Assembly (NCBI GenBank): GCA_964252075.1
Contig: CAXULY010000021.1
Location: 56,308-88,307, forward strand
DNA length: 32,000 nucleotides
Direction: 5' to 3'
Source of the DNA: an uncultured Deinococcaceae bacterium
Lineage (GTDB): Bacteria > Deinococcota > Deinococci > Deinococcales > Deinococcaceae
Below the pieces are notes generated by a model. It was not told the DNA's origin. It ran no database searches and saw only the letters and a list, made by a program, of their open reading frames with translations. Position numbers and translations under genes: made by a program. Below are positions 2,332 through 27,591 of the stretch, one piece after another (positions within the stretch are counted from its first letter, which is position 1; each line of letters begins with the position of its first letter).

Positions 2332-2589
2332 ATGGCTGATGAATCGAAAGGCAAGGGGGTCGTGAGCCCCACGCCGGACACCCCGACCGCCCCGCAGAAC
2401 AGCGGCCCGGCCACCCCGCCGGACGCCGCACCCACCACCGAGCCGCGCCTCGCCCTCTCGCGCTTCCTGGCGACCGAGCCGGGCGTGCGCCCCGTAACGC
2501 GCACCATCCTCACCAAGGTCTTCGGGGACGAGAAGCACACCGCGAGCGAGTGGCGCGCGCTCGTGCAGCAGAACCGGGGGAATGAATGA
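2332..2589 (+). CDS. Small hypothetical protein (85 aa, Pro/Thr-rich N-terminus)
   Basis: GGAGGA lies about 6 nt upstream of ATG 2332. Its stop overlaps the sheath start (ATGA at 2586-2589). Confidence 0.65.
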   Translation: MADESKGKGVVSPTPDTPTAPQNSGPATPPDAAPTTEPRLALSRFLATEPGVRPVTRTILTKVFGDEKHTASEWRALVQQNRGNE

Positions 2590-4334
2590 GCACCGGGAAA
2601 TTCGCGGATTACTTCGCGGGGCGCGCCATCACGCTGCCCGGCGTGTACACCGACACGGACGCGTCCGCGCTCGTCGCGCCGTCCGGCGTGCCGCAACGCG
2701 CCATGGTGATTGTGGACGTGGCGCGCGGCGGGAACGTCGGCCTCGCGACGCGCGTGCCCGCCGCGCAGGTCGTGCCGCTGCTGCGCGGCGGGCACGGCGC
2801 GCAGCTCGCCAGCATCGCCACGAACGAGGGCGGCCTCAAAGAGGTGTTCTTCGTGCGCGTGAACGCCGCCACCGCGGCGGCGCTCGACGTGGGTGACGGC
2901 ACCATCACGCACCGCAACCCCGGCACGGGCAGCCGCGCCACGAAGGTGGAGCGCAGCGCGAACGCCGCCCGCGCGGACGCCTGGGACGTGCGCGTGACCG
3001 ACACGTCCGGCGCCTTCCCGCCCGAGGCGTACCTCGGCCTTGGCCCGGTGCTGGACGTCACGTACGCTGGCACGGGCAGCGCGCCCACGCTCGCCATCAC
3101 GGCGGCGACCGGCACCACCACCTTCACGTTCGGCGCGACGGACGACACGGACGCCGTGGAGGTCGTGACGAGCGACCAGGCCGCGACCGCGCAGCTCCTC
3201 GCGGACTTCCTGAACGGCACGCCCAGCTGGACCGCGAAGGTCTCGGGCAACCCGGCGTTCCCACTCGCGCAGGTGCCCGCGCAGACCGTGACGTTCACGG
3301 CCAGCAAGGGCAGCGTGTCGGGCGGCTTCAACACCATCGCGGTGGCGCTGGAGAACAGCAACATCGTGGCTGGCACGCCCAAGGCGGGCGCGGCGCGCCT
3401 CACGAGCGGCGCGGAGTACCTGACGGGCGGCTCCGACGGCAGCGCCCCCACCACGAACGACTGGATCAGCGCGCTGCGCGTGTGCGAGAACCTGCCGGTC
3501 ATCAACATCGTGATCGGCACGGGCGACCCGGCGGTCGTCGCGGCGCTCGAAAGCCACGTGCTGCGCATGAGTGAAGTCACCGCGAAGCGCGAGCGCATCG
3601 GCTGGACGGGCCCCGGCCTGCAGGTCAGCAAGGCGGCGTTCAAGTCGGCGGCCATCACGCTGGCGCTGCAGTGCGACTCGTCGCGCATGGTCGTGGCGGG
3701 CAACGAGGTCATCACGAACGACCTGCTGACCCGCAAGCTCACGCGCTTCGACAGCACTGCGCTGGCGGCGTTCGCGGCGGCCCTGAAGACCGCCGGGCGG
3801 CCCGAGGAGCCCCTCACGCACAAGACCGTGCCGATGCAGCTGCAATACAGCTACGACCCGGACGCGGACCTCGTGGACCTCATCGAGGGCGGCGTCATGG
3901 CGGCGCACTACGACACCGAGGCGGGCCGCAACCTCATCACGCAGGGCCTCACGACGTACACGGATGACGCGAACGTCGCGTACCGCAAGATCGCCGGTCA
4001 GGACACCATCGACTACCTGAACAAGCGCCTGCGCGTCGCGCTGGAGCCGTTCGTCGGCAAGGTGGGCGACCAGACGCTCGCGCAGCAGGTCGTCACGAAA
4101 GCGGCGGGCGTGCTGAACAGCGAGATCCGCGACACCCGCAACCCGCGCGGCGTGCTGATCGCCGGGCTGGACCCCGAAACCCGCGCGCCCGTGAAGGCGT
4201 GGGACTCGCTGGTGGCCGAAACGAACGGCTTCGACGTGCTCGGCGTGACGTTCAACGCGCGCATCGTCGGCGAGATCGCCAAGGTGTTCGTGACCACCAC
4301 CCTCAAGCCCGTGACGCTCACGGCGAGCGCGTAA
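2586..4334 (+). CDS. Phage tail sheath protein (582 aa)
   Basis: The N-terminal ..AITLPGVYTDTD.. resembles the PGVY motif at sheath N-termini. The size fits, and the gene sits immediately upstream of the tube, chaperone and tape measure genes. Confidence 0.85.
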   Translation: MSTGKFADYFAGRAITLPGVYTDTDASALVAPSGVPQRAMVIVDVARGGNVGLATRVPAAQVVPLLRGGHGAQLASIATNEGGLKEVFFVRVNAATAAALDVGDGTITHRNPGTGSRATKVERSANAARADAWDVRVTDTSGAFPPEAYLGLGPVLDVTYAGTGSAPTLAITAATGTTTFTFGATDDTDAVEVVTSDQAATAQLLADFLNGTPSWTAKVSGNPAFPLAQVPAQTVTFTASKGSVSGGFNTIAVALENSNIVAGTPKAGAARLTSGAEYLTGGSDGSAPTTNDWISALRVCENLPVINIVIGTGDPAVVAALESHVLRMSEVTAKRERIGWTGPGLQVSKAAFKSAAITLALQCDSSRMVVAGNEVITNDLLTRKLTRFDSTALAAFAAALKTAGRPEEPLTHKTVPMQLQYSYDPDADLVDLIEGGVMAAHYDTEAGRNLITQGLTTYTDDANVAYRKIAGQDTIDYLNKRLRVALEPFVGKVGDQTLAQQVVTKAAGVLNSEIRDTRNPRGVLIAGLDPETRAPVKAWDSLVAETNGFDVLGVTFNARIVGEIAKVFVTTTLKPVTLTASA

Positions 4335-4345
4335 GGAGGCCCTGA

Positions 4346-4882
4346 GTGACGGTCTACAACAACTACAACAGCGTGAAGTCCCGCCACGCGAACACCGCCA
4401 AGGTGATTATTGACGGCGAGGTGGTCGCGGAGTGCATGTCGATCAGCGTGCAGGAGTCCGGCGGCACCGACCAGACGTACACGGTCGGTGAGGCCAAGCC
4501 GCAGGAGAGCATCCACAACCGCTACAGCGCCAGCGCGCAGATTCAGCGCGTGATCTTCAAGGACGGCGCGCTCCAGAAGTACACGATGGGCGGCTCCGGC
4601 CTGCTGGACCTCCCGACGTTCACCATCCAGGCGATTGACGAGATTGACGGCGCGGTGCTGTTCACCTTGATCGGCTGCACGCTCGCGTCGCGCAGCACGA
4701 ACATCCAGGCGAACCAGCGCATCATGAGCGACGTGCAGGTGCTCGCGCTGGACTGCCAGGACAAGGACGGGCAGGTGTCGGGCGGCAGCACCTTCGGGCA
4801 GGACGGCGGGGCGGGCGCCGCCACCACCAACGACACCACCCCGCGCGGCGGCAGCGCCGGACTGGGCCGACCCGTTCCCTGA
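4346..4882 (+). CDS. Phage tail tube protein (178 aa, XkdM/tube-like by position)
   Basis: GTG start at 4346 preceded by AAGGAGG (4332-4338). The size and its position directly after the sheath gene fit a tube protein. The C-terminus is Gly-rich. Confidence 0.75.
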   Translation: MTVYNNYNSVKSRHANTAKVIIDGEVVAECMSISVQESGGTDQTYTVGEAKPQESIHNRYSASAQIQRVIFKDGALQKYTMGGSGLLDLPTFTIQAIDEIDGAVLFTLIGCTLASRSTNIQANQRIMSDVQVLALDCQDKDGQVSGGSTFGQDGGAGAATTNDTTPRGGSAGLGRPVP

Positions 4883-4970: not shown

Positions 4971-5384
4971 ATGGACGCCACCACCTCCGAAGTCGTCACC
5001 ATCACGCACGCGGACGCCACGCTGAGCGGCCCGGTGATCTTCCGCTACCCCACGGCCTTCGATCAGATCGCCATCGGCGCGCGCGTCAGCGACCTGCTGA
5101 ACGCCGGGCGGGACGTGCAGTTGCCGCGCGTGCACCCCGCCGACGTGATGCTCGACACGTACCGCCTCGCGCACGCCGTCGCGACGCTGGAGCACGTCAT
5201 TCACACGGCGCCGCGCGGGCTGTACGAGAGCGTGAACGGCCGCGCGGTGCTGAACGTCGGGCGGCTCGTGGACGAGGACGACGACCAGGGCGGCCTCATC
5301 ATGACGCTCTACGCAGCGTACGAGCAGTGGAGGTCGTCCTTTCGACGCGCGCGAAGCGCAGCACCTCCAGACGCTGGCGCGTGA
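4971..5384 (+). CDS. Tail assembly chaperone, short (G-like) product, 137 aa
   Basis: It lies between the tube and tape measure genes, is acidic, and has GGGGG upstream of the ATG. It overlaps a downstream open frame in the +1 phase. Confidence 0.7.
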   Translation: MDATTSEVVTITHADATLSGPVIFRYPTAFDQIAIGARVSDLLNAGRDVQLPRVHPADVMLDTYRLAHAVATLEHVIHTAPRGLYESVNGRAVLNVGRLVDEDDDQGGLIMTLYAAYEQWRSSFRRARSAAPPDAGA

Positions 5385-5709
5385 CGACGCCGCGCGCTTC
5401 ATCGCCGCCGCCGCGCACCGGGTGGGCGAGAACCCCCTCGCGGCGCTCGGCGTGCCGGGCGTGTGGTCCGTCGAGCGGGCGGTGTTCCTGCACGACCTGC
5501 TGACGCCGCGCGACCAGGGCGGCAAGACGCAGGGCGAGCTGGACGACGGCGCGCAGGCGGTGCTGGACGCGATGGACGCGCGCGACTCGTGGACGCAGGC
5601 GACCCGCACCGGGTACCGTGGGCCGCGCGGGCGCGTGCCCACGAAGGTACGCCAAATGGCGCATACGCCAGTCCCTCGACGCATCAACATCCAGTGGAAT
5701 CGCGTTTGA
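4971..5709 (+). CDS. Putative frameshifted long (GT-like) chaperone product, join(4971..5342,5344..5709), about 245 aa
   Basis: The +1 phase is open from 5305 to 5709 and reads as natural sequence (..FDAREAQHLQTLARDDAARFIAAAAHRVGENPLAALG..). A UUU CGA site at 5340-5345 would allow a UUU to UUC slip ahead of the CGA codon (probably rare in GC3-rich genes). The last 20 or so codons run into low-GC DNA. Confidence 0.5.
5340..5345 (+). other. Candidate +1 programmed ribosomal frameshift site (UUU_CGA)
   Basis: The zero-frame codons are TCC TTT CGA. A P-site Phe tRNA can re-pair on UUC (5341-5343). The zero frame terminates 13 codons later at 5382-5384. Confidence 0.4.
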
Positions 5710-5919
5710 GTTTTATTAGCAGGAATAAACCATGCGATGAATTCAGACCTCCGCTCAATGCTTCAAAAAGGCCTTTTTCCCGTGGTTGTCATAACAAACA
5801 GGGAAAAGGGTCGTATTTACTTGCTACTCATCCGGCTCATAGGCTCTGCTCAATTTGCACATCATCATTGACACTGTTGCAGACGAGCAATTTAGCCTAA
5901 TGAAGCCGCCCCAAGTTCA

Positions 5920-5948
5920 TTGACATTGGCGCGCTAACACATTACGAT
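5920..5948 (+). promoter_or_regulatory. Sigma-70-type promoter TTGACA-N17-TACGAT
   Basis: TTGACA at 5920-5925, an exact 17-nt spacer, and TACGAT at 5943-5948, inside the low-GC island. A second TTGACA at 5868-5873 lies within a duplicated 12-mer, TCATTGACAYTG (5865-5876 and 5917-5928). Confidence 0.5.
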
Positions 5949-6014
5949 GAAGGAGCCTGAGAGGGCGGGAAGCTTGACAGTCAGGACACCAGGGGCACCA
6001 AAGGCAAAAGGATT

Positions 6015-6042
6015 GCAGGTGCCTCTTGCCGGAGGCACCTGC
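6015..6042 (+). promoter_or_regulatory. Perfect 11-bp hairpin (GCAGGTGCCTC-ttgccg-GAGGCACCTGC) in the leader of the mini-ORF
   Basis: Read directly from the sequence. It lies about 60 nt downstream of the predicted transcription start and 18 nt upstream of ATG 6060. Confidence 0.55.
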
Positions 6043-6059
6043 GGAAAGGCAAGGTGACT

Positions 6060-6194
6060 ATGCGTCTAAACCAACGCAAGTCTACCAAAGCCACGCGCAG
6101 GCCTCAAGTCCCCGACTTTGAGGCAAAGGTTCAGCTGTTGAACCTGCTCGTGAATTTGGCGCGACTCGTCATCGAGTTGATCCAGCACTGGTAA
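6060..6194 (+). CDS. 44-codon mini-ORF (MRLNQRKSTKATRRPQVPDFEAKVQLLNLLVNLARLVIELIQHW)
   Basis: It runs from ATG 6060 to TAA 6192-6194, with AAGG upstream. Third-position GC is 32/44, higher than the local GC of about 55%. The N-terminus is basic and the C-terminus is a hydrophobic or amphipathic helix. A terminator follows. It is too short for the ORF track. Confidence 0.4.
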   Translation: MRLNQRKSTKATRRPQVPDFEAKVQLLNLLVNLARLVIELIQHW

Positions 6195-6237
6195 ATTGCC
6201 TCCTCGCGTGACCTGACCACCGCCCGCCCGCAACGGC

Positions 6238-6264
6238 AACGCCCCCGCAAGGGGGCGTTTTTCA
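6238..6264 (+). terminator. Rho-independent terminator (AACGCCCCC-gcaa-GGGGGCGTT followed by a T-run)
   Basis: A 9-bp stem with a GCAA tetraloop and a T-run, which closes the low-GC cassette just before the tape measure gene. Confidence 0.7.
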
Positions 6265-6307
6265 TTGGTCCCCACCCGCCCCCCGAGCGTGCGCCCAGCA
6301 TGACGGC

Positions 6308-9300
6308 ATGACGCAGCGCCGGGTCGAAATCGCCGTAGAGGGCAAGGTCGTCGTGGACGCCGACGTGACCAAGGCCAAAGAGAAGATCAAGGGCCTCAGC
6401 GACGACGGCCTGATCGGGCAGGGCCCCACGCCCAGCGACCCCAGCAAGGCGCCCAGCAACCCCTTCCAGCAACTCAACGCCAGCTACTTCGGCGCGCAGG
6501 CCGAACGCGCCCTCGCGGGCATCCTCCCCCTGATCGGGCAGGAGCACCGCACGCCGGGCCGCGAGCGCACCCTCGATGAGCGATTGGACCGCGCGCTCTC
6601 GAACGCGCAGCTCGGGCAGCGTGACGACCTCGTGGAGGTCCTGACGGGCCTCAAGAACGAACTGCAGCAGCAGCGCCTCACGCGCGGCGCGGGCAGCGGC
6701 GGCGGCTTCGGCGGGGGCGGCGCGCGCCCACCCGGCAGCCCCCCACCGCCCGAAAACGAACCGCCCACCCCGCCCAACAACGCCGGGAACTGGCTGAAAA
6801 ACGTTGGCGGCTGGCTGGAGCAGCAGGGCGGACGCAGCCTGCTGGGCGGCCTCTCCGGCACTTTCGGCGGCGCGGTGGGCGGGGCGCTCTTCAGTGGCGC
6901 GTCGCGCCTGCTGGCTGGACCCGCCGGTTGGGCGCTCGGCGGCCTGAGTGCGGCCAACTGGGCGTTTAACGCGGTCAGCAACGCCGTGACGGAAAAGGAC
7001 GCGCTGGGGCGGACGGAGATCCTGGGCCAAGCGGATTTGGCCCGTCAGTATGGCATTGACCGCAACATCATGCCGCTCTTCCGCACCAAGAACGGCTGGA
7101 GCAACAACCGCTTCCAGGCGCTCGGTTACACCGCCAGCGAGGCCGAGCACGTGGCGGCCCAATACGACCGGCCCGGCGGGATGTTGGGCGACGTGACCAG
7201 CATCCTGGGCTTCTCGCGCTCCACCGGGATGAACGAGGGCACGGTGTCGCAGATCGCCCGGCAATTCGGCATCGCGGGCGTCGGTGGCGCCCAGGGCGGG
7301 CACGCCGACGAGTCGCTGCGCGTCCTGAAGCTCGCCGTGACTGAAGGGCTTAAGGACGGGATTGCGGGCTCGGACAGCGTGGAGGCCATGAAGGGCTACC
7401 TGTCTCGCATCAGCAGCGGCGGCAACAGCGTGAACGGCACCAGTCTCGCGTACTTCGCGCAGATCATGCAGCGCCTGAACGCCGACCCCAACGGCAACCC
7501 AGCGATGCGCGGGCAGGCGGGCGCCAGCCTGGCGAGCGGGTTCATGGCTGGCGTGAACAACCAGTCCGACCCCGGCATGAATTACCTGCTGACCAGCATG
7601 TTGATGAAGGGCGGCAAGCTCCCCAGTGCCCGCGCGCTGGGCCTGACGCTGCCTGCGAGCGACCCGCGCAACGCCGGTGCCAAGCCCGACGAGTACGCCC
7701 TCACGGACGAGGGCGTGGCGTACGAGTCCATGCGCCAGCAGAGCCCCCTTCAGGCATCGCGTTACCTGCTGGAGCGCGCCAGCACCGGCAAGAACCCCAC
7801 CCTGCTGAGCGGCCTCTACAAGGACATTGACGCGGTGGCGGGTGGCAACACCCAGTTGCGCTACATGATGTACAAGCAGCTCAATCCCGGCGCCAGCGAC
7901 GAGCAGGTCTACTCGCTGATGGGCGGCAAGGGGCTCAGCGGGGTCATGGCGAACAACCCGCAGTCGCTGCAAGCGCACAAGACCGGCCAGAGCGTGACGT
8001 CCGACGTGCAGGCTGGCAACGTCGTCGCGGCCGACACCCTGAAGTTGCGCGGCGCCGAGGCGGACCGGGCGCTGGTCAAGAGCCTGGCGAGCCTTCAGGT
8101 GTGGGGCAACATGGAGCGGTCCCTGTCCGACATCAAGAACAGCGTGGCCGACCTGCAGGGCGGCTTCGCGCAGTGGTTCGCCAACTACGGCAACCCGCAG
8201 GGTTCGCTGGCGGGCGAGGCGGGCGTCAGCGGCGTGTGGTTCAATGGCGCGCGAGGGGCGCCCGGCCTGCAACCCGGCACGGGCCCCGGCACCGGCGCAC
8301 CCGGGACCACCTACACGCCCGCCTTCCAGCCCAGCGCCAGCGCCGCCCAGATGCGGATGCTCTCGGCGGTCGCGCAGAAGGAGACCACCAACGGCAAGGA
8401 CCCCGCAATGGACGCGCCCGGCACGTCCATGAGCGGACTCTTCCAGCTCAGCCCCGCGCGCGGTCGGGAGCTGGTGCAGAAGTACCTCGGCGCCGCCCTG
8501 AAGGGGGACAACACCGCCGTGCGCGAGTGGCTGCGCGCCCATCCCAAGGAAACCGACCAGATCAGCGCGCAGGAGTTGATGGACATTGACGGGCGACTGC
8601 GCGCGCAGGGCCAAAAGGACGGCGTGAGCCTCTCGGACGCCCAGTACGCTGGTCTCGCCGGCATGATCTGGCACCGCAACGGCGGCGGGAGCATCGCGCC
8701 CGCGCTGAAAGCCGGCAAGCTGGTGTCCGCCCCCCTGTCGGCCCTCGCGCGCGCCGGTGGTCCGGACGGCGTGAGCGACTACGACTACTTCCTGAATGTG
8801 CAAGGCAATTACACCAACCCCCAACTGCGCCCGGCCGCCCTGCGAGGCGCGAACGGCGCGCTGGGTGGCGGCGTCACCACCACCGCACCCAGCGACCCCA
8901 CGGCGCCCGGCGGCCCCGCTTGGAAGTCGTCGCCCGAAGGGGCGCGCATCGCCGCGACGGCCACCACGGCGCTCTCCGCCAGCTGGGCGGAGGAGGCCGC
9001 CGGGTGGTGCTCGCGCTTCGTGAAGCAGATCATGGTGAAGGCCGAAGGGCAGGCCGCCGCCGCGCTGTTCGGCGGCACCTCCAAGGACACTGAGGGCCGC
9101 TGGGGCAAGAAGGGCTGGAGCAAGACCCTCAGCGAGGTGGGCGGGAAGTCCGGCCTGCGCCCCGGCGACGTGGTGTTCGCGGACTGGGTGGACCCCAAGG
9201 ACGGCGTGAACAAGGGCCACGAGGGCGTCCTCGACGCGAACGGCAACGTGGTCGAGAACTCCTACCGCGGGAAGGGCGGCAAGCAGGTCACGCCGCTCGC

Positions 9301-9646
9301 CCGGTGGGGCCAGATCACGCACGTGGGCCGCTGGGGCGGCTTCGACGCCCCCGACGGGGGCGGTACACCACCAAGGCCGCCCGCCCGTCCGCCCAAGCCG
9401 CAGCGGCCCATCCCGCCACCCCCGCACGCCGAGGTGCCCGCGCGCCTGCGCGGCGCCCTCACGGCGGGCATGCAGGGGGGCACCACGCTGCACCTCACGA
9501 TTCCGGTGAGCGCGAACGTGCACATCAACGCGCAGCAGCGCGCCGAGATTGAGCGCGAGGCGGGCGGCTTCGCCGTGAAGGTCACACAGATCGTCGCGCA
9601 GAACCCCGTGAACGTCGCGGGCGTGCGTCAGGCGGCGCAGTCGTGA
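6308..9646 (+). CDS. Tail tape measure protein (1112 aa) with C-terminal lytic transglycosylase-like and CHAP/NlpC-P60-like regions
   Basis: The size and position fit a tape measure protein. It has Gly-rich hydrophobic segments (LLGGLSGTFGGAVGGALFSGA..). An SLT-like motif, AQKE(692)TTNG...SGLFQLSP, lies near 8340-8720. A Cys/His pair, GWC(901)SRFV ... GH(971)EGV, lies near 8990-9300. A Pro-rich tract follows at 9355-9440. Confidence 0.85.
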   Translation: MTQRRVEIAVEGKVVVDADVTKAKEKIKGLSDDGLIGQGPTPSDPSKAPSNPFQQLNASYFGAQAERALAGILPLIGQEHRTPGRERTLDERLDRALSNAQLGQRDDLVEVLTGLKNELQQQRLTRGAGSGGGFGGGGARPPGSPPPPENEPPTPPNNAGNWLKNVGGWLEQQGGRSLLGGLSGTFGGAVGGALFSGASRLLAGPAGWALGGLSAANWAFNAVSNAVTEKDALGRTEILGQADLARQYGIDRNIMPLFRTKNGWSNNRFQALGYTASEAEHVAAQYDRPGGMLGDVTSILGFSRSTGMNEGTVSQIARQFGIAGVGGAQGGHADESLRVLKLAVTEGLKDGIAGSDSVEAMKGYLSRISSGGNSVNGTSLAYFAQIMQRLNADPNGNPAMRGQAGASLASGFMAGVNNQSDPGMNYLLTSMLMKGGKLPSARALGLTLPASDPRNAGAKPDEYALTDEGVAYESMRQQSPLQASRYLLERASTGKNPTLLSGLYKDIDAVAGGNTQLRYMMYKQLNPGASDEQVYSLMGGKGLSGVMANNPQSLQAHKTGQSVTSDVQAGNVVAADTLKLRGAEADRALVKSLASLQVWGNMERSLSDIKNSVADLQGGFAQWFANYGNPQGSLAGEAGVSGVWFNGARGAPGLQPGTGPGTGAPGTTYTPAFQPSASAAQMRMLSAVAQKETTNGKDPAMDAPGTSMSGLFQLSPARGRELVQKYLGAALKGDNTAVREWLRAHPKETDQISAQELMDIDGRLRAQGQKDGVSLSDAQYAGLAGMIWHRNGGGSIAPALKAGKLVSAPLSALARAGGPDGVSDYDYFLNVQGNYTNPQLRPAALRGANGALGGGVTTTAPSDPTAPGGPAWKSSPEGARIAATATTALSASWAEEAAGWCSRFVKQIMVKAEGQAAAALFGGTSKDTEGRWGKKGWSKTLSEVGGKSGLRPGDVVFADWVDPKDGVNKGHEGVLDANGNVVENSYRGKGGKQVTPLARWGQITHVGRWGGFDAPDGGGTPPRPPARPPKPQRPIPPPPHAEVPARLRGALTAGMQGGTTLHLTIPVSANVHINAQQRAEIEREAGGFAVKVTQIVAQNPVNVAGVRQAAQS

Positions 9647-11117: not shown

Positions 11118-12509
11118 ATGAAGCACGATTACGCCGCGCTCCTCGCGCTGTTCGGCCCCATCATCACGGAGCGGAAGCTGGGCCGCTACGAGGTGCGGCG
11201 CCTCATCCCGGAGCTGAGCGAGAAAGGCGCTCGGCGCCTGCTGGAGATGCTGCGGGGTGAGCGCCCCGTGCCGCCCGCCCCGCGCGCCCTCACGGTGTCG
11301 TGCGCGCCCGCGCCGGACCAGCAGGTGCAGGACACCGAGCAGGACGGCGAGCGCACCGTCACCGCGAAGGGCGGGCGCATCAAGACCATCGAGGACCTGA
11401 TCGCCGCCGCGAACGTTGACCTCACCCTGTGGGAGGTCACGTGGGCTGAGGTGAACAAATACGAGATGGGCCGCAAGGCGCAGCGCAGCCGCCTGGACTA
11501 CACGGATGGCAAGGCGAACGGTAAGGTGCGCGATTCGGGCGGCGTGCACGTCGAGGAGCTGTACCAGGTCAAGGTGAAGCTCAAGCCGCGCCGCGACGTG
11601 GTGGACCTGCTGGCGCTGAAGGAATCGGCGCTTGCGGAGGTGCGCGCCGCCGCCGCCACGCTGCCCCGCGCGCCCCGCCCGCAGGTCGCGCGTCCCCGCA
11701 CGGGGAACCTGCTGTACCTCGGCATGCACGACCTGCACCCCGGCAAGATGGTCGCGCCGGAGGAAACCGGGCACGTGTGGAACCCCGAGCTGGCGCGCGA
11801 GGTGGCGCTCAAGGCCCTCACGCGCGCGCTGGAGAAGGCGAGCGCGCACGGCTTCGACCGCATCGTGCTGCCCATCGGGCACGACCTCAGCCACGTGGAC
11901 GGCAACAACAACGCCACGACCGGCGGCACCGCGCAGGACGTGAGCCGCCGCTACCACGTGCAGCGCCGCCTGGACCTCGCGCTCGCCGGGGCGCTCATCG
12001 AGCGCGCCGCGGAGTTTGCGCCCGTCGAAGCGGAGGCCGTGCCGGGCAACCACGGGCGCAGCACGGACCTCGCCATCGCGGAGATGCTGCGCGAGCGCTA
12101 CCACGCCGACCCGCGCGTGCAGGTCCGCGTGAGCCTCGCGCCGCGCGTGTACCTGAGCCACGGCGTGAACCTGCTGGGCTTCACGCACGGCGACCGCATC
12201 AAGGCGCAGGCGTTGATGAGCCTCATGGCGCGCGAAGCGAAGCAGGAGTGGGCCGCGAGCGAGCACCAGGAGTGGTTGATCGGGCACACGCACGCCATGA
12301 GCGCGCTGACCGAGAAGTACCTCGTGGAGCAGACCGGGCAGGAGCACGTGGGCGTGCGCGTTCGAGTCTTACCGAGTCTGACCGCCACCGACTACTGGCA
12401 CGCCGCGTGCGGGTACGTGGCGAGCGGGCGCGCGCTGGAGGCGTACCTGTACCACGAGGCGCACGGGTACGAGGGGCACGTGAACGTCCCGCTGCGCGAG
12501 GTGCTGTGA
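11118..12509 (+). CDS. Calcineurin-like metallophosphoesterase (463 aa) with an N-terminal region of about 190 aa of unknown function
   Basis: The ordered motifs are GMHDLHPG (DxH), GHDLSHVDG, PGNHG (GNH), FTHGD and IGHTHA (GHxH). GAGGG lies upstream of ATG 11118. Its stop overlaps the GTG start of the spike gene. Confidence 0.8.
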   Translation: MKHDYAALLALFGPIITERKLGRYEVRRLIPELSEKGARRLLEMLRGERPVPPAPRALTVSCAPAPDQQVQDTEQDGERTVTAKGGRIKTIEDLIAAANVDLTLWEVTWAEVNKYEMGRKAQRSRLDYTDGKANGKVRDSGGVHVEELYQVKVKLKPRRDVVDLLALKESALAEVRAAAATLPRAPRPQVARPRTGNLLYLGMHDLHPGKMVAPEETGHVWNPELAREVALKALTRALEKASAHGFDRIVLPIGHDLSHVDGNNNATTGGTAQDVSRRYHVQRRLDLALAGALIERAAEFAPVEAEAVPGNHGRSTDLAIAEMLRERYHADPRVQVRVSLAPRVYLSHGVNLLGFTHGDRIKAQALMSLMAREAKQEWAASEHQEWLIGHTHAMSALTEKYLVEQTGQEHVGVRVRVLPSLTATDYWHAACGYVASGRALEAYLYHEAHGYEGHVNVPLREVL

Positions 12510-13678
12510 CGCGCTTCCCGCCCATCGCACTCGCGCAGGTTGAAGCAGCTCACCCCGAAGATTTTGAATTGGATATTATTTTCCCGAATTACAGCAATTT
12601 GCAGGGCATCCGCGTGCCCATCGCGGCGCCGGGCGGGGGCGCGTCGCGCGGCGATTACGACCTCCCGCGGCGCGGCGACTGGGGCGTCGTGGTGTTCTAC
12701 CTCGACACGCCCCGCACCGCTGTGTGGCTCGTGAGCCTGCCAGATGCGCTGTTCAACACCAAGCCCAAGGAGGTCTTCAAGCGCGACCCGCGCGCGCGCG
12801 TGCGGTACGACCTGCCGGGCACGCAGGAGATCCATTACAGCAACGGCGACCACGAGCAGCTGTACCCGGACGGCACGCTGCTGCGCGTGACGGCCAGCAA
12901 GGACGGCAGCACGGGCAACACGGGCGGGCGCGTGACGCGCACGCCGTGGGTGGTGGGCCAGGAGAGCCCAGCGGACAGCCGACAGGAGGCGCGCCGCACC
13001 TTCCAACCCAGTTCAGCGCCCGTGGACGTCATGCTGGACCACAGCAGCGGCGCGCAGGGCGTGCTCACGGCGGACGGCAGCTGGCGCCTCACGACCGCGA
13101 AGGGGCACCAGATCATCGCGCACGACGCGACCGAGCGGGACCGCGACCCCAAGACCGGCCAGATCACCGCGCGCCCCGAGGAGGACGAAGGCAAACGCAC
13201 CGCGTCGCGCATCGAGCTCAAGACCGAAATCGGGCATCAGGTCATCCTCAAGGACGACCCGCAAATGCAGCTGGACCGCAAGATTCTGGTGCGCAGCAGC
13301 ATCGGGCACACGTTCGAGCTGCACGACAAGCCGGACACCGACCAGTTCATCCGCGCGCAGACGGCGGGCGGGCACCTGCTGGAGCTGCGCGACAAGCCCG
13401 ACGAGGCGTCGCACATCCTGGCGCAGACCGCGGGCGGCCTCACGCTCATCCTGGATGACGCGACCGACAGCATCAGCATCATCCGGCACGGCACCAAGAT
13501 CCTGCTCAAGCCGGACGGCAGCATCGAGGTGGACGCCACGACCGTCACGGTGAACGCCACGCACGTGAACCTCGGCGGGCCGGGCGGGAAGGGCGTCGCG
13601 CGCATCGGGGACGCCGTGCAGGCAGGGCCGTACACCGGCACGATCACCGCGGGCAGCACCACCGTCACGAGCGTCTGA
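12506..13678 (+). CDS. Baseplate central spike (gpV / gp5 / VgrG-like), 390 aa
   Basis: The N-terminal OB-fold-like signature is ..DLPRRGDWGVVVFYLD.. This is followed by periodic beta-helix-like repeats (HQIIAHD, HQVILKDD, HTFELHDKPD, HLLELRDKPD, LTLILDD, ILLKPDGSIEVDA). The GTG start is trimmed from tracked ORF 11777-13678. Confidence 0.7.
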   Translation: MTRFPPIALAQVEAAHPEDFELDIIFPNYSNLQGIRVPIAAPGGGASRGDYDLPRRGDWGVVVFYLDTPRTAVWLVSLPDALFNTKPKEVFKRDPRARVRYDLPGTQEIHYSNGDHEQLYPDGTLLRVTASKDGSTGNTGGRVTRTPWVVGQESPADSRQEARRTFQPSSAPVDVMLDHSSGAQGVLTADGSWRLTTAKGHQIIAHDATERDRDPKTGQITARPEEDEGKRTASRIELKTEIGHQVILKDDPQMQLDRKILVRSSIGHTFELHDKPDTDQFIRAQTAGGHLLELRDKPDEASHILAQTAGGLTLILDDATDSISIIRHGTKILLKPDGSIEVDATTVTVNATHVNLGGPGGKGVARIGDAVQAGPYTGTITAGSTTVTSV

Positions 13679-13707
13679 CCCCCCACGCACGCCCGCACAC
13701 TCCCCCC
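13676..13707 (+). repeat. 32-nt intercistronic spacer TGACCCCCCACGCACG.. (copy 2 of 3, variant)
   Basis: TGA (the spike stop) to ATG 13708 is exactly 32 nt, and the spacer shares TGACCCCCC with the other copies. Confidence 0.55.
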
Positions 13708-14364
13708 ATGAGCCGCCCGAGCGACGAGACCCTCCGATTGCGCCGCAGCAGCGTGTATGTGCTGCGCCTCCTCGCGCCGAACGGTCGCCCCGCGAACCCC
13801 GGCCTGCCCGGCGTCACGAACGGCGAGTTCCGCTTCGAGTACGCCCCGCAGCGCGTGGAGTACCAGGACGGCCTGCGCGCGCAGGTGGTGCCGCAGGGCG
13901 CGACGGGCGCCCTCGCGGACGTGCAGGGCATCAGCCCGCCCGCCATCACGGTCAACTTCACGTTCGGGGAGGCGGGGCGCCTCCCGACGGGCGGCCTGGA
14001 CGGGCGCGAACTGCACGCCGCCATCGAGGGCGTCGTGCGCTGGTACGTCACGCGCGTCGCCGCGGAAGGCCGCGCGCGCCAGGCGCTGCACACACTCGAG
14101 TGGCACGACCCGTACAAGGCGCAGCACTGGGTGGTCATCCCGATGAACACGCCGTACGGCGCGCGCGACGCGACCGGCCCGTACAAGGAGAGCGCGACCC
14201 TGAAGCTTCAGGCACTCACGCGCGCCGATCAGGGCGCACCCGCGGCGCCCCTCATCCGCTTCGCGCTCGCGAACCCCGTGAGCGCCTGCCCGTACGCCCC
14301 GAACTGCGGGCAGGGCGGACCGCGCTGCGCGGGGTGTCTGCTGACCGGCACGGAGCTCGCGTGA
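13708..14364 (+). CDS. Hypothetical baseplate-module protein (218 aa) with a C-terminal Cys cluster (CPYAPNCGQGGPRCAGC)
   Basis: A tracked ORF with high GC3, sitting inside the baseplate gene block. Confidence 0.65.
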   Translation: MSRPSDETLRLRRSSVYVLRLLAPNGRPANPGLPGVTNGEFRFEYAPQRVEYQDGLRAQVVPQGATGALADVQGISPPAITVNFTFGEAGRLPTGGLDGRELHAAIEGVVRWYVTRVAAEGRARQALHTLEWHDPYKAQHWVVIPMNTPYGARDATGPYKESATLKLQALTRADQGAPAAPLIRFALANPVSACPYAPNCGQGGPRCAGCLLTGTELA

Positions 14365-15044
14365 CCGTCGCGCAGGATGTGCTCGCGAGCGCGGACCCCC
14401 TGGCCGCGCAGGCGACGGCCGCGCACAGCGCCGCCACGGAGGACCTCGGCGCGGACGAGGCGCGCACCGCCGCGCGCGCTCTGCTGGGCGCGGCGCGCGC
14501 CGCCAGCAACGCGACCGCGCAGAAAGTCGCGCAGGACGTGATCGGCACCCTCGCGGACGCCGCGGGCGCCCTGGCGGGCGGCAACCAGGCGCAACTCGCG
14601 CAGGCCGCGCAGACCCTGGCGGGCGTGCAGGCGAGCGTGCAGGCCGTGCAGGCGAACCTCCAGGCGGGCGTGACGCTCGTGGACGCCGCGCAGCGCCTCG
14701 CGCTGAACCCGCAGGGCGCCCTCACGACGGACGCCACGACCCTGGCGAGCGTCCTGCGCGTCGCGGGCGAGTACGCGCAGCGCAGCAAAGCGCCGGGCCT
14801 CGCGCGCGCCGTGACGCTCCTGACGAGCCTCGCGAAGCACGCCAGTGACCTCGCGGCGAGGAAGGCGAACCAGCAGCCGCCCGCGCCTCTCACGCCGCTG
14901 GAGTTCACGCTGGGCGTCAGCGTCCCGTTCGCGCTCGACGCGCTGAGCGGCGACCCCAGCCAGAAGTACGTCACAGCGGGCCTCATGGGCGCGTCGAAGA
15001 CCCTCACGGCCCTCGCGGAGGCGCGCGCCGGGGGTACGCCGTGA
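14361..15044 (+). CDS. Ala/Gln-rich helical hypothetical protein (227 aa)
   Basis: GTG 14361 overlaps the previous stop (GTGA). It is trimmed from tracked ORF 14100-15044. Its function is unknown. Confidence 0.6.
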   Translation: MTVAQDVLASADPLAAQATAAHSAATEDLGADEARTAARALLGAARAASNATAQKVAQDVIGTLADAAGALAGGNQAQLAQAAQTLAGVQASVQAVQANLQAGVTLVDAAQRLALNPQGALTTDATTLASVLRVAGEYAQRSKAPGLARAVTLLTSLAKHASDLAARKANQQPPAPLTPLEFTLGVSVPFALDALSGDPSQKYVTAGLMGASKTLTALAEARAGGTP

Positions 15045-15646
15045 CGGTCGCGCGCGGCGCCGTCCTGGCGGGCGAGAACATCGTGACGCTCGCCGCGCGC
15101 CTCACCGGGGACGCGCGCAGGTGGCAGGAACTCGTGACGCTCAACGGCCTCACCCCGCCGTACGTGTCCGACGCGGGCGGGCCGGGCGTCCTCGCGCCGG
15201 GCGACGCGGTGCTGTACCCGACCTCCAGCGAACCCGCGCCCACCGTGGACGCGGCGCTGCTGGAGGTCCGCACGTACTTCCGGGACCTCGCGGTGGAGGG
15301 CGGCGACCTTCAGTTCAACGCCGCGGGCGGCCTCGTCACGGTGAGCGGCCTGGAGAACCTGCAGGCCGCGCTCGGGCGGCGCCTGCGCACGCTCATCGGG
15401 CGCCACCCGTTCCACCCAGGCTTCGGGAACCGCGCGGTGCTGGCGCTCGGTGAGGTGGCGGACGAGGGCGCGCTGGCGCTGCTGGCGAGCGACACGCGCG
15501 CCGCCATCACGCGCGACCCGCGCGTGCAGGACTGCGCGGTGGCGCTGGAGTGGGCGAGCACGCACGTGCTGCGCGCCCACCTCACGGTCACGCCCGTCCC
15601 GCCCGGGACGGTCTTCACCCTCTCGGAACTGCTGGACGTGCGGTGA
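15041..15646 (+). CDS. LysM-like domain fused to a gp25/GPW-like baseplate wedge protein (201 aa)
   Basis: The N-terminus GENIVTLAARLTGDARRWQELVTLNGL...LAPGDAVLYP is LysM-like. The segment LQAALGRRLRTLIGRHPFHPGFG matches the gp25/W signature. It lies upstream of baseplate J. Confidence 0.7.
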   Translation: MTVARGAVLAGENIVTLAARLTGDARRWQELVTLNGLTPPYVSDAGGPGVLAPGDAVLYPTSSEPAPTVDAALLEVRTYFRDLAVEGGDLQFNAAGGLVTVSGLENLQAALGRRLRTLIGRHPFHPGFGNRAVLALGEVADEGALALLASDTRAAITRDPRVQDCAVALEWASTHVLRAHLTVTPVPPGTVFTLSELLDVR

Positions 15647-15802
15647 TTACAGGCATCCGCCGCACGGCTCCGGCGCGAGCAGCGGCGAGAAGCACCCGCC
15701 GCAGGGTTCCGGCGCGAGCGTGAGCGCGAGGAGCGTCACGAGGGCCGCGAGGGCGAGCGCGAGGGTCTTGAGGGGCGGGACTGCGGTGCGGGTGGTCGTC
15801 AT
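15647..15802 (-). CDS. 51-aa hydrophobic peptide with a duplicated LAPEPCGGC motif (MTTTRTAVPPLKTLALALAALVTLLALTLAPEPCGGCFSPLLAPEPCGGCL)
   Basis: I reverse-complemented and translated it by hand. 48 of 51 third positions are G or C. It has a signal- or TM-like core. The TAA at 15647-15649 abuts the TGA of the convergent W-like gene. TAGCGT sits 6 nt upstream of the ATG. It is too short for the ORF track. Confidence 0.6.
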   Translation of the reverse strand: MTTTRTAVPPLKTLALALAALVTLLALTLAPEPCGGCFSPLLAPEPCGGCL

Positions 15803-15884
15803 GCCCGCACGCTAGCAGCGCCACGCGCGGGCATGGCCGGATTTCCACTTTTTCGCAGCGACCAACCGTGAATTCTTCAATCGG

Positions 15885-15986
15885 TCAGCAGGTGCCGCAC
15901 ACGACCGGCACGTCCCGCAGTGCGAGCGCGAGGGCGGTGAGGGCGAGCAGGAGGGCCAGGGGCAGGCGGACGCGCAGGAAGGTCAT
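15885..15986 (-). CDS. 33-aa hydrophobic peptide ending in CGTC (MTFLRVRLPLALLLALTALALALRDVPVVCGTC)
   Basis: Hand translation gives nearly all G/C third positions. It has the same architecture as the 51-aa neighbour, a TM or signal segment followed by a C-terminal CxxC, and lies 82 nt upstream of it on the same strand. Confidence 0.55.
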   Translation of the reverse strand: MTFLRVRLPLALLLALTALALALRDVPVVCGTC

Positions 15987-16088
15987 CACGCCCCGATGCT
16001 GGCACGCCGCGGCGCGGGGGGTGCGTGGTTTCGGTCTTGCGCACAGGCGAAATCATGGCCCCCCGCCTCCGACCGCACCCTTGAGCGC

Positions 16089-17150
16089 ATGAGCCGCTAC
16101 CCGAAGTCGTTTGACCAAAGCCTGGGCGACCTCGCCCGCTCCCTGTGGGGCGACCTGGGTAGGCAGCCGGACCTCGTGGAGGGCAGCGACCTGCGCAGCA
16201 TCCTCGAAGCGGTGGCGTTCCAGGTGGCGGACCTCAGTTACCGCCAGGAGGCCGCCATTGACGCGGCGGTGCCGGAGGCCATCTACCGCGCGTTCGGCTT
16301 CGAGTTGCAGCAGGGCGTGAACGCGCAGGGCGTCCTCACGGTGACGCTCGCGGGGCCCCTGCCGTACGACACCACCATCCCGACGGGCAGCGAGGTGCTG
16401 ACGGACGGCGGCGTGAGCGCCCTCACGACCGCGGAGCTCACCATCGCGGCGGGGCAGGTGTCGGGCACCGTGACGGCCCTCTCGGCGCAGCCGGGCGCCG
16501 CGGGGAACGTGCCGGCGCTGGCGTTCCGGCGCTTCGCGTTCACGGTGCCGGGTGTGTCGGGTGTGACGAATCCGCAGGCCTTCGCGGGCGGGCGGGACGT
16601 GGAAACCCTCACGGAGCAGCAGGACCGCTTCATTGCGTTCCTCGTGTCGCTCGACGCGTCCAGCGAGGGCGGCCTCGCGGAGCTGCTGCTGCGCACCACG
16701 CTGAACGGCGAGTCGCTCACCGCGTGCCGCGTCGTGGACGGCACGGAGGACCCCAGCATTCCGCCGGGGCGCTTCCTCGCGTACTGCTACCGCCCCGCGG
16801 GCATCACGGACGCCTACCGGGACGCGCTGTGGCAGGTCATGCAGTCGCGCCGCGCGGCGGGCGCGCTGGGCGCCATCGTGCGCGTGACGCCCACGCCGGT
16901 GGACGTGGTGGTGACGGTCGCGACGCGCCGCGCGGGCGTCGCGGTGGACCTCACGCGCGCCGCGCAGGCGTACTTCACCGCGCTGCCGTTCGGCGCGAAG
17001 GTCAGCTACGAGAACCTCATCACGGCCCTCACGACCAGCTCGCCGGACGTGCGGGAGGTGACGCTGGTGAGCCCGCCGGCGGACCTCATGGCGGCGACCG
17101 GGCAGCACTACCGGCTGGGGGACGTGCAGGTGAGTGAGGTGCTGCTGTGA
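16089..17150 (+). CDS. Baseplate J-like protein (353 aa)
   Basis: ..GVLTVTLAGPLPYDTTIPTGSEVLTDGGVSALTTAELTIAAGQVSGTVTALSAQPGAAGNV.. is the typical Baseplate_J pattern. The position fits. ATG 16089 is trimmed from tracked ORF 15996-17150. Confidence 0.85.
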   Translation: MSRYPKSFDQSLGDLARSLWGDLGRQPDLVEGSDLRSILEAVAFQVADLSYRQEAAIDAAVPEAIYRAFGFELQQGVNAQGVLTVTLAGPLPYDTTIPTGSEVLTDGGVSALTTAELTIAAGQVSGTVTALSAQPGAAGNVPALAFRRFAFTVPGVSGVTNPQAFAGGRDVETLTEQQDRFIAFLVSLDASSEGGLAELLLRTTLNGESLTACRVVDGTEDPSIPPGRFLAYCYRPAGITDAYRDALWQVMQSRRAAGALGAIVRVTPTPVDVVVTVATRRAGVAVDLTRAAQAYFTALPFGAKVSYENLITALTTSSPDVREVTLVSPPADLMAATGQHYRLGDVQVSEVLL

Positions 17151-25966: not shown

Positions 25967-25994
25967 CGCCCCGGCCCGCGCGCCGGGGCGTTTT
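25967..25994 (+). terminator. Rho-independent terminator (CGCCCCGGC-ccgcgc-GCCGGGGCG followed by TTTT) ending the late operon
   Basis: A 9-bp perfect stem with a 6-nt loop and a T4 run, 16 nt after the stop codon. Confidence 0.8.
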
Positions 25995-26013: not shown

Positions 26014-26046
26014 TTGTCACTTAAACTTTACAAAATTCGCTATAAT
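26014..26046 (+). promoter_or_regulatory. Promoter with a consensus -10 TATAAT (26041-26046) 6 nt upstream of ATG 26053, a leaderless-mRNA layout
   Basis: The TATAAT is perfect and sits in an AT-rich stretch. There is no Shine-Dalgarno sequence between it and the ATG. The possible -35, TTGTCA (26014-26019), has non-optimal 21-nt spacing. Confidence 0.6.
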
Positions 26047-26052
26047 GTCAGC

Positions 26053-27591
26053 ATGCCAGCAAACAAGACAGCAGACATGGACCACCTGCCCACCACCGAC
26101 CTGCAAGGCCTCAAGCTCGGCATGCTGACCGCGCACCTCCTCGCGCGCGGCTACACGCTTGCGGACCCCAGCCCGTTCAAGGGAGACATGGCCGAGCGCG
26201 CCGCCGCGACCGAAGGCCGCCTCATCGCGGTGCTGCTGCACGGCCCGCGCGAAGTGGCGGTCGCCGGGCTGACCCTGATGGGCGAGGACAGCGTGGGCGT
26301 GGAGGCCACCGCGTACGGCTTCCAGCTCATGCAGCGGGATCTGCCCGACCTCATCAAGAGCACCGCGTGGCCCACGGGCATCAACCTTGAGGCCTTCAAC
26401 GACGCGGACGCCCGGGCGCTGGACAAGCTCATCGCCGCCCTGCTGCGTTACGCCGACCCGGAGTCCTGGGAGGCCGTCAGGACCGCCACGGCGGACCGCT
26501 GGGTGGGCAAGCCGTATCACGAGGACGGCCACACGCTCGCCGACACCGCGTTGGGCATCCTCAAGGACGGCGCGGACCTCTCCCCCACCTTCCTGCACCT
26601 CGTGCACACTGCGCTGGGCCTCACGGACGCGCCGCTGCTGCCCCTGCCCAAGCCCAGCCCCAAGGAGGCCTTCGAGAAGCTGCGCGAGGCCACAGGCGCC
26701 GCCCTGAACGGCGTGCGCCCCGAAGACCTGCGCGACGACGCGCCCCTCACGCACGAGTTCAAAGAGAGCGACCTCGCGCGCGCCGCCCAAGCGGCCCACG
26801 AGGTGAACCGCGTGTGGAGCCTCACGCACGGCGACTTCTCGCACCGCACCTGGCTGGACGCGCCCAGCTGGCAGCGCGAGAGCGCCGTTAATGGCGTGCG
26901 CCACGTCCTCACGGCACTCCAGCAGGGCCGCACGCCCCGCCCCGAAGAGAGCCACGAGAGCTGGTACGCCGAGAAGGAAGCCGCGGGTTGGGTGTACGGC
27001 GAAGTCAAGGACCCCGACGCCAAGACGCACCCCTGCATGGTCCCCTACGACCAGCTGTCCTACGTGCAGCGCGCCAAGGACGCGCTGTTCAACAGCACCG
27101 TCACGGCGTTCCTGCGCGCCCTCGCGGGCGAAACGGTGCAGCCACGCAGCACCGTTCAGGGCGCCATCGAGTCCGCCATCCACCACATGAGCGCCGCTGG
27201 CGACGCGCTGAAGATCATCGCCCCGGGCGCGCCCACCGAGCACGCCCGCACCACGGCACCCCTGCTCGTGCTGGCAGAGGTGGCCGCGGAGCGCGAGCGG
27301 CAGGTCACGCAGGAGGGCTGGACGCCCGAGCACGACGACGCACACGCGCAAGGCGAGATGGCCGCCGCGGCAGCCGCCTACGCGCTCGCCGCTGTCTCAG
27401 GTTACGGAGCGCACACCTTGGCGGAAGAGGACAACATCGCCATGAGCCTGGACGAGCTCAGCAGGCACGCATGGCCCGAGGGTTGGAGCGGCAGTTGGTT
27501 CAAGCCCACCACCCACCGCCGCAACCTCATCAAGGCCCTCGCGCTGCTCACCGCGGAAGTGGAGCGCCTGGACCGCGCGGAGCAGGCGTGA
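26053..27591 (+). CDS. RyR-domain protein (512 aa): unknown N-terminal region, RyR-like domain, C-terminal EGWTPEHDDxH module
   Basis: ..AAHEVNRVWSLTHGDFSHRTWLDAPSWQRESAVNGV...ESHESWYAEKEAAGWVYGEVKDPDAKTHPCMVPYDQLSYVQRAKD.. (about 26770-27130) matches the bacterial/phage RyR repeat pattern (HExW..GW.YG..d...K.HP.lvpYdeL). ERERQVTQEGWTPEHDDAHAQGEMAAAAAAYA (about 27289-27385) is a motif I recall from phage proteins of unknown or NTP-pyrophosphohydrolase-like function, with low certainty. Confidence 0.7.
   Translation: MPANKTADMDHLPTTDLQGLKLGMLTAHLLARGYTLADPSPFKGDMAERAAATEGRLIAVLLHGPREVAVAGLTLMGEDSVGVEATAYGFQLMQRDLPDLIKSTAWPTGINLEAFNDADARALDKLIAALLRYADPESWEAVRTATADRWVGKPYHEDGHTLADTALGILKDGADLSPTFLHLVHTALGLTDAPLLPLPKPSPKEAFEKLREATGAALNGVRPEDLRDDAPLTHEFKESDLARAAQAAHEVNRVWSLTHGDFSHRTWLDAPSWQRESAVNGVRHVLTALQQGRTPRPEESHESWYAEKEAAGWVYGEVKDPDAKTHPCMVPYDQLSYVQRAKDALFNSTVTAFLRALAGETVQPRSTVQGAIESAIHHMSAAGDALKIIAPGAPTEHARTTAPLLVLAEVAAERERQVTQEGWTPEHDDAHAQGEMAAAAAAYALAAVSGYGAHTLAEEDNIAMSLDELSRHAWPEGWSGSWFKPTTHRRNLIKALALLTAEVERLDRAEQA

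Follow-up and report, generated by a model that had tools for sequence, protein, structure and literature searches.

The first moron to be described was gene 15 of the Escherichia coli siphovirus HK97, located where the tail chaperone genes give way to the tape-measure gene (Juhala et al. 2000; Cumby et al. 2012; PMC3594210). According to its record, HK97 has the end of gp13/14 at 8145 and gene 15 (62 aa) at 8203-8391; a terminator follows at 8398-8422, and the gene for the tape measure protein (TMP) starts at 8435. The GC content of gene 15 is 31-35% vs 55-60% in its flanks. Accessory/defence hotspots of temperate phages are exemplified by those of P2/P4 (Rousset et al. 2022, as cited in PMC10884400). 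Here we describe an island of ~620 nt between the tail assembly chaperone and TMP genes in a stretch of 32,000 nt from an uncultured Deinococcaceae bacterium (contig CAXULY010000021.1); this whole stretch is referred to below as the window. The island is an accessory insertion at a recurrent hotspot in contractile-tail phages of Deinococcus-Thermus, and we regard it, with moderate confidence, as a moron producing in the lysogen a ~310-nt RNA that encodes a 44-aa peptide. On the best reading, the element is ordinary in kind, a horizontally acquired, self-contained transcription unit with an orphan cargo, and its host is a temperate contractile-tail (sheath-bearing) phage of the Deinococcus-Thermus lineage. 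The island and the genes that flank it are:

4971-5384, plus strand: tail assembly chaperone G (137 aa), which borders the insertion on its upstream side and matches PHROG tail assembly chaperone families.
5337-5709, plus strand: T extension of the chaperone, in the +1 frame, with a conserved core up to GYRGPRG and its last ~8 codons and stop inside the island.
5687-6304, plus strand: inserted island (putative moron), ~620 nt; the left border is taken from the GC break, and the right border is uncertain, within 6195-6304.
6308-9646, plus strand: TMP, 1112 aa, downstream flank of the insertion.

Comparison with related phages carries the case for insertion. Relatives were found through a search with the sheath protein and in a phage collection, and the ~10 available are too few for turnover rates. 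They share 41-53% identity with the window in the sheath protein (32-40% for cultured Thermus phages), the best named sheath relative being the Deinococcus geothermalis protein P0007; genome-contig scans, viral-contig scans and exact-protein look-ups returned no close kin of the window. In the metagenomic loci L001 (the closest relative), L002 and L007/L009, as in Thermus phage Lalka27a, the TMP gene either starts 3 nt from the T stop or overlaps T, vs ~620 extra nt in the window. Other relatives carry cargo of their own at this junction. L003 has a 5.4-kb block of lower GC content (11190-16478) that includes the PADLOC candidate defence system PDC-M02 A and B (E 1e-53 and 5e-88; a DUF4365 protein and its partner), together with a P22-type antirepressor, an HTH protein and a PIN protein. 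In L004 (11100-11516) and L005 (5428-5925) the junction is occupied by a minus-strand gene of 138-165 aa, and Thermus phage Cumys (L133) has there a 162-aa minus-strand gene (8885-9373) unrelated to the L005 protein. None of this cargo resembles the island. Because T and TMP abut in some relatives and are separated by unrelated cargo in others, the T/TMP junction is an accessory-gene hotspot and the island an accessory insertion in it. The presence/absence polymorphism that the earlier note proposed to look for among related phages is thus borne out, and no relative holds the segment as chaperone or TMP coding sequence.

The island also stands apart by its composition, as the earlier note had perceived. 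GC content falls from 81.7% at 5581-5640 to 50.6% at 5701-6180 and 44.1% at 5710-5920; in 60-nt windows it is 38-58% over 5680-6190 vs 72-82% upstream. With 50% GC in the island vs 70% for the window, 5641-6220 is the sole long tract below the 58% threshold in the 32 kb, all others being 160 nt or shorter. The third-position GC content (GC3) of the T frame, whose collapse after ~5641 had been noted, is indeed 1.0 up to 5619 (5440-5619), 0.74 at 5620-5679 and 0.47 beyond.

The suggestion that the insert replaced the native 3' end of T needs qualification. The conserved T core is unbroken up to GYRGPRG (~5611-5631), and beyond this motif the T tails vary from relative to relative in both length and sequence. 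We placed the left border at ~5686 since the T tail of the window, PTKVRQMAHTPVPRR, still weakly resembles that of L001 (p = 0.03). Only the ~8 final codons of T and its stop (INIQWNRV*, ~5686-5709) are encoded by the island, so the end of the frame is foreign as proposed, but no meaningful part of T was lost. We also considered whether the native T 3' end survives downstream, as after an in-frame or intron-like insertion. A DNA alignment was suggestive, but this was rejected: the T frame gave p 0.79 against L001 and p 0.40-0.99 against the T tails of all relatives with composition-matched shuffles. One off-frame comparison (L002 vs frame 2) reached p 0.04 among 16 tests.

The signals of transcription and translation that we recognize in the island are:

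5865-5876, plus strand: 12-mer copy 1, TCATTGACACTG, a -35-like hexamer with no matching -10.
5917-5928, plus strand: 12-mer copy 2, TCATTGACATTG, 52 bp from copy 1 and overlapping the -35 hexamer of the island promoter.
5920-5948, plus strand: sigma-70-type promoter TTGACA-N17-TACGAT, agreeing with the consensus at 10/12 positions; transcription would start near 5955.
6014-6043, plus strand: 13-bp hairpin of the predicted 5' leader, with a perfect 11-bp core at 6015-6042; -24.9 kcal/mol, z -4.7.
6052-6057, plus strand: Shine-Dalgarno-like AGGTGA, read from the sequence, 2 nt ahead of the mini-ORF ATG.
6060-6194, plus strand: mini-ORF of 44 codons, MRLNQRKSTKATRRPQVPDFEAKVQLLNLLVNLARLVIELIQHW, beginning at the first AUG downstream of the predicted transcription start.
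6238-6264, plus strand: intrinsic terminator, with a 9-bp perfect stem (6238-6259), a GCAA loop and then TTTTT; -18.9 kcal/mol.

All the sequence features listed in the earlier note were found again, including the promoter, the leader hairpin (11 bp there, extending to 13 bp), the terminator and a palindrome at 5765-5778. The promoter, predicted by consensus only, is the sole sigma-70-like match in the entire 32 kb. The 12-mer TCATTGACAYTG is duplicated at 5865-5876 and 5917-5928 as reported, and its first copy might bind a regulator or represent what is left of a promoter. With the third TTGACA, found again at 5974-5979, three of the seven TTGACA hexamers of the window fall within 112 nt, all on the plus strand. 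The smaller hairpins fold close to where they had been placed, at ~6101-6124 and 6127-6145.

The signals exceed what chance provides. Among 3000 dinucleotide shuffles of 5687-6300, 1.6% contained a plus-strand promoter of at least 10/12 positions and 0.07% a perfect-stem terminator of at least 9 bp, and none (0/3000) had both; in the island the two are properly ordered and lie on the right strand. All four in-silico marks of a moron (Juhala/Hendrix) were found, namely adjacency of the flanking genes in relatives, a promoter, a terminator and a deviant composition; a fifth mark, expression from the repressed prophage, is a prediction. The idea of an autonomous unit fitting the moron concept, put forward in the earlier note, is strengthened by the cargo of other kinds at the same junction in relatives and by the presence of HK97 gene 15 in the same slot.

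The 44-codon ORF at 6060-6194 has the GC3 of 32/44 that was noted earlier. Its codon-position GC1/2/3 values of 26/14/32 of 44 amount to a coding-type periodicity (chi-square p = 0.0005), and the AGGTGA at 6052-6057 is complementary to the 16S 3' end (UCACCU). AlphaFold2, run on the single sequence, predicts residues 1-19 to be unstructured, and this head is basic; residues 20-43 are modelled as a helix, with a block-mean pLDDT of 89-96 over residues 21-44. The earlier note had anticipated a hydrophobic helix: the model agrees with the helix, but it is amphipathic rather than plainly hydrophobic (hydrophobic moment 2.05; best 19-residue Kyte-Doolittle mean 1.47). Its polar residues Q25, N28, N32, R35, E39 and Q42 follow a 3-4-3-4-3 spacing that places them on a single face, and the remaining helix is hydrophobic. 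The modelled pattern would suit a membrane-embedded or bundle-forming small protein.

In the scenario that we favour, host sigma-A RNA polymerase would initiate near 5955 from the 5920-5948 promoter in the lysogen, when the late operon is silent, and would halt at the 6238-6264 terminator, yielding a strongly folded RNA of ~310 nt. The first AUG of that RNA (6060), with AGGTGA upstream, would open the 44-codon ORF. The product would combine a head of 19 residues, basic and disordered, with one helix of 24 residues, and could be a small protein that associates with membranes and with itself. If HK97 gp15 and other small moron products are a guide, it would most likely benefit the lysogen at the envelope, for example through superinfection exclusion. 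Time and again, small prophage peptides of this sort that had escaped annotation have proved to be exclusion or defence factors.

The cargo resembles nothing that can be named, as the first inspection of the sequence had suggested. Pfam, PHROGs, NCBIfam and PADLOC gave no match for any island ORF, and no fragment of a known family appeared in six frames; PADLOC protein models assigned 0 families to the mini-ORF. There were 0 matches to the mini-ORF among 1.84 billion representative proteins and no candidates in a 5.8-billion protein set, and none came from tblastn-type scans of viral and metagenome contigs or from tblastn of phages and plasmids. The island DNA found no blastn match in phages or plasmids and no similarity to the loci of relatives by blastn or tblastx, and exact-pattern scans of viral contigs for two island hairpins returned nothing. 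The 12-mer occurred in 120 metagenome contigs; these matches were rejected as chance, as the contigs otherwise share at most 28 nt with the island (E 0.03 or worse). The two of them examined (L103 and L127) are tandem repeats.

Several observations weigh against the moron with a peptide product. The lack of any homologue of the island DNA or mini-ORF in these searches leaves it without evidence from conservation or covariation. A 44-codon ORF is expected by chance in 600 nt of 50% GC DNA, and the island has further ORFs of 44 and 69 codons, none being longer than 69. The Kyte-Doolittle mean of 1.47 falls below the usual transmembrane threshold, and the mini-ORF region folds into three hairpins (z -3.2 to -4.0) that would serve a non-coding RNA equally well. 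The strong terminator lies 43 nt upstream of TMP, an essential late gene, so that read-through is needed, with no mechanism known here. Finally, ~230 nt of the island (5687-5920) are without explanation, and the source record annotates no gene within it, the mini-ORF included.

The unexplained part contains two further features, both on the plus strand:

5737-5871, plus strand: possible second ORF of 44 codons, MNSDLRSMLQKGLFPVVVITNREKGRIYLLLIRLIGSAQFAHHH, of low confidence; codon-position GC 25/14/19, p = 0.06.
5770-5812, plus strand: long hairpin, placed in the 5' half of the island, which is AT-rich; -22.4 kcal/mol, z -5.4, vs -13.9 kcal/mol, z -2.7 on the minus strand, and hence strand-biased.

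The region 5710-5920 had been described as free of any credible ORF. Strictly, the ORF at 5737-5871 exists, but little speaks for it, as it has no well-spaced Shine-Dalgarno sequence and neither a family nor a homologue in the library and homologue searches. Another ORF, at 5947-6057, was rejected, having an ATG that overlaps the -10 hexamer and no periodicity of the coding type.

The strength of folding raises the question whether the RNA itself is the product. We find rather unlikely a moron that yields a structured non-coding RNA of ~310 nt, perhaps with a second RNA from the 5' half and with the ORF incidental; a structured sRNA had been among the options of the earlier note. The plus strand folds far beyond shuffles at 5955-6265 (z -6.2) and at 5690-5955 (z -5.1; minus strand -1.2), and a 150-nt scan separates the plus strand of the island (z -2.5 to -4.9) from the flanking coding DNA (~-2.0 to +1.5). 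Strand-biased hairpins and a mini-ORF without homologue are in keeping with such a product. Part of the z-score, however, is due to the terminator and the single 13-bp hairpin, and a comparison with 4227 Rfam families, at E up to 10, gave only noise for the island; the periodicity (p = 0.0005), the Shine-Dalgarno-like AGGTGA and the position of the first AUG speak for translation. The same structure, a terminator just upstream of the TMP gene, and a T frame that continues into the island and ends shortly afterwards, in the manner of exon frames at intron borders, could recall a self-splicing intron or an internal regulator (promoter/attenuator) of TMP expression; these, with a transposon or miniature inverted-repeat transposable element, are very improbable. 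Rfam gave no group I or group II match at E up to 10, and the site is the variable end of T, whereas introns target conserved sequence. Neither terminal inverted repeats nor a target-site duplication bracket the island, and the window holds no other copy of it. Relatives express TMP without such an element. A tRNA-linked element was rejected, there being no tRNA or tmRNA.

That the island is the decaying remnant of a larger cargo, comparable to the L003 block or to the L004 or Cumys genes and now a functionless spacer, is unlikely. It would account for the lack of ORFs longer than 69 codons, of homologues and of annotation in the source record, for the ~230 nt with no assignable feature and for 12-mer copy 1, which resembles a promoter stripped of its -10 element. 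Decay is difficult to reconcile with an intact, ordered series of promoter (10/12), Shine-Dalgarno sequence, uninterrupted periodic ORF and perfect terminator, of which promoter and terminator never occurred jointly in the shuffles, and no fragment of a known protein family remains in six frames. Quite doubtful, in our opinion, is a type I toxin-antitoxin-like module in which a 44-aa amphipathic membrane toxin would be paired with an antisense RNA of ~70 nt covering its Shine-Dalgarno sequence and start codon. The small peptide, with its basic head and a single helix that is polar only along a narrow stripe, the long, structured 5' leader and the toxin or defence cargo of relatives at the T/TMP junction are compatible with it. 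The antisense side would depend on one more feature:

6079-6107, minus strand: weak candidate antisense promoter TTGAGG-N17-(TGg)TAGACT, matching at 8/12 positions only; speculative.

This extended -10 candidate, read from 6107 to 6079, might speculatively give rise to the ~70-nt RNA, ending at the hairpin read from 6042 to 6015, which has a short T-run after its stem on the minus strand and scores there as a terminator-like site; the predicted antisense RNA folds with z -3.2. Against this, only 8/12 promoter positions agree, the T-run on the minus strand is broken (AATCCTTTTG), typical type I toxins have a more hydrophobic helix, and Rfam, Pfam and NCBIfam gave no match to a type I toxin or antitoxin family. 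It is similarly a long shot that the cassette is an RNA-regulated small-toxin/exclusion module, whose pore- or bundle-forming 44-aa peptide would be translated under the control of the 13-bp leader hairpin and of a cis-antisense RNA terminating there. If true, this would be an undescribed type I toxin-antitoxin-like family of Deinococcus-Thermus phages at the chaperone/tape-measure hotspot.

The island sits in a tail-gene module of 70% GC, in the order sheath (2586-4334), tube (4346-4882), chaperone (4971-5384) and tape measure (6308-9646). Chaperone G has a GC3 of 0.91 and 62% identity to its L001 homologue, the T extension 46%. The T extension uses the +1 frame rather than -1, both in the window and in each of the five relatives that were examined (the L001, L002, L003 and L007 sites among them). 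Its likely shift site, judged from sequence, is TCC TTT CGA at 5337-5345, with GGAGG upstream at 5329-5333 (GGAGG-TCG-TCC-TTT-CGA). UUU CGN occurs in the G/T overlap of five of the six loci (at ~10344-10362 in L001) and GGAGG precedes the site in the window, L001 and L002. The site has its likeness in the prfB-type +1 shift, with a Shine-Dalgarno-like element, a slippery Phe codon and a slow Arg codon. The source record annotates 5422-5709 as a separate 95-aa gene.

Downstream, the TMP shares 39% identity over 703 aa with that of L001, the N-termini aligning from residue 1. The TMPs of relatives contain Peptidase_M23, whereas that of the window has no Pfam match at E up to 0.01; a lytic domain of another kind may lie in its C-terminal part. 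No Shine-Dalgarno sequence accompanies the TMP start (ATG 6308); relatives couple this start to the T stop, a coupling that is broken here by the island. A 3-codon ORF (ATG ACG GCA TGA, 6300-6311) overlaps the TMP ATG.

Some observations elsewhere in the window deserve mention. A second moron-like unit may be present at 163-605, with a 91-codon ORF (277-552) preceded by an AAGGAGG Shine-Dalgarno sequence, without a Pfam match, and with terminator-like hairpins at 163-186, ~215-243 and 570-605. A short AT-rich patch, gattttgaattggatattattttcccgaattacagcaatttgc, lies at 12540-12600, just past a stop codon, in a baseplate region otherwise of 70% GC. The tail module is closed by a 9-bp GC terminator (25967-25990). 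Beyond it, a perfect TATAAT at ~26041-26046 stands 6 nt ahead of ATG 26053, which looks like a leaderless-type start, and the gene that begins there (26053-27591) carries a RyR domain.

The finding challenges no concept. A compact orphan unit of promoter, leader, mini-ORF and terminator has been overlooked by genome annotation, and it represents a cheap functional candidate in a radiation-resistant host whose prophage biology is barely studied.

Among known systems, type I toxin-antitoxin loci of prophages, such as hok/sok, tisB/istR and ibs/sib, resemble the cassette in their small basic peptide, whose single helix is hydrophobic or amphipathic, in a leader that is long and structured, and possibly in a cis-antisense RNA over the ribosome-binding site. 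The cassette differs from them in having no family match and in the weakness of its candidate antisense promoter, as read from the sequence. The P2/P4 hotspots resemble the T/TMP junction as fixed sites between conserved genes, with unrelated cargo in each relative and with one candidate defence system (PDC-M02 in L003). The site in the window differs in lying inside the tail morphogenesis operon of Deinococcus-Thermus myophages, and its cargo has no PADLOC match.

HK97 gene 15 provides the closest parallel. The two phages are far apart, HK97 being an E. coli siphovirus with a -1 frameshift and the window belonging to a sheath-bearing phage of the Deinococcus/Thermus type with T in the +1 frame. 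The island is twice as long as the HK97 unit, with its ~230 unexplained nt, and the mini-ORF and gp15 give no BLASTP alignment at E up to 100; the mini-ORF has no match to YebO or any other Pfam family at E up to 10. Gp15 consists of an N-terminal transmembrane segment and a hydrophilic tail, whereas the peptide is predicted to have a basic disordered head followed by a C-terminal amphipathic helix. An exclusion function has been demonstrated for gp15, to which the peptide may be likened by analogy only. The two units nevertheless share the slot between the chaperone (gp13/14 in HK97) and TMP (gp16) genes, one very small ORF (62 aa in HK97 vs 44 aa in the island), an intrinsic terminator shortly before TMP begins (12 and 43 nt, respectively), a GC content far below that of the flanks and absence from related phages. 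The junction at which the first moron was described is therefore also a cargo hotspot in unrelated, +1-frame myophages of Deinococcus-Thermus.

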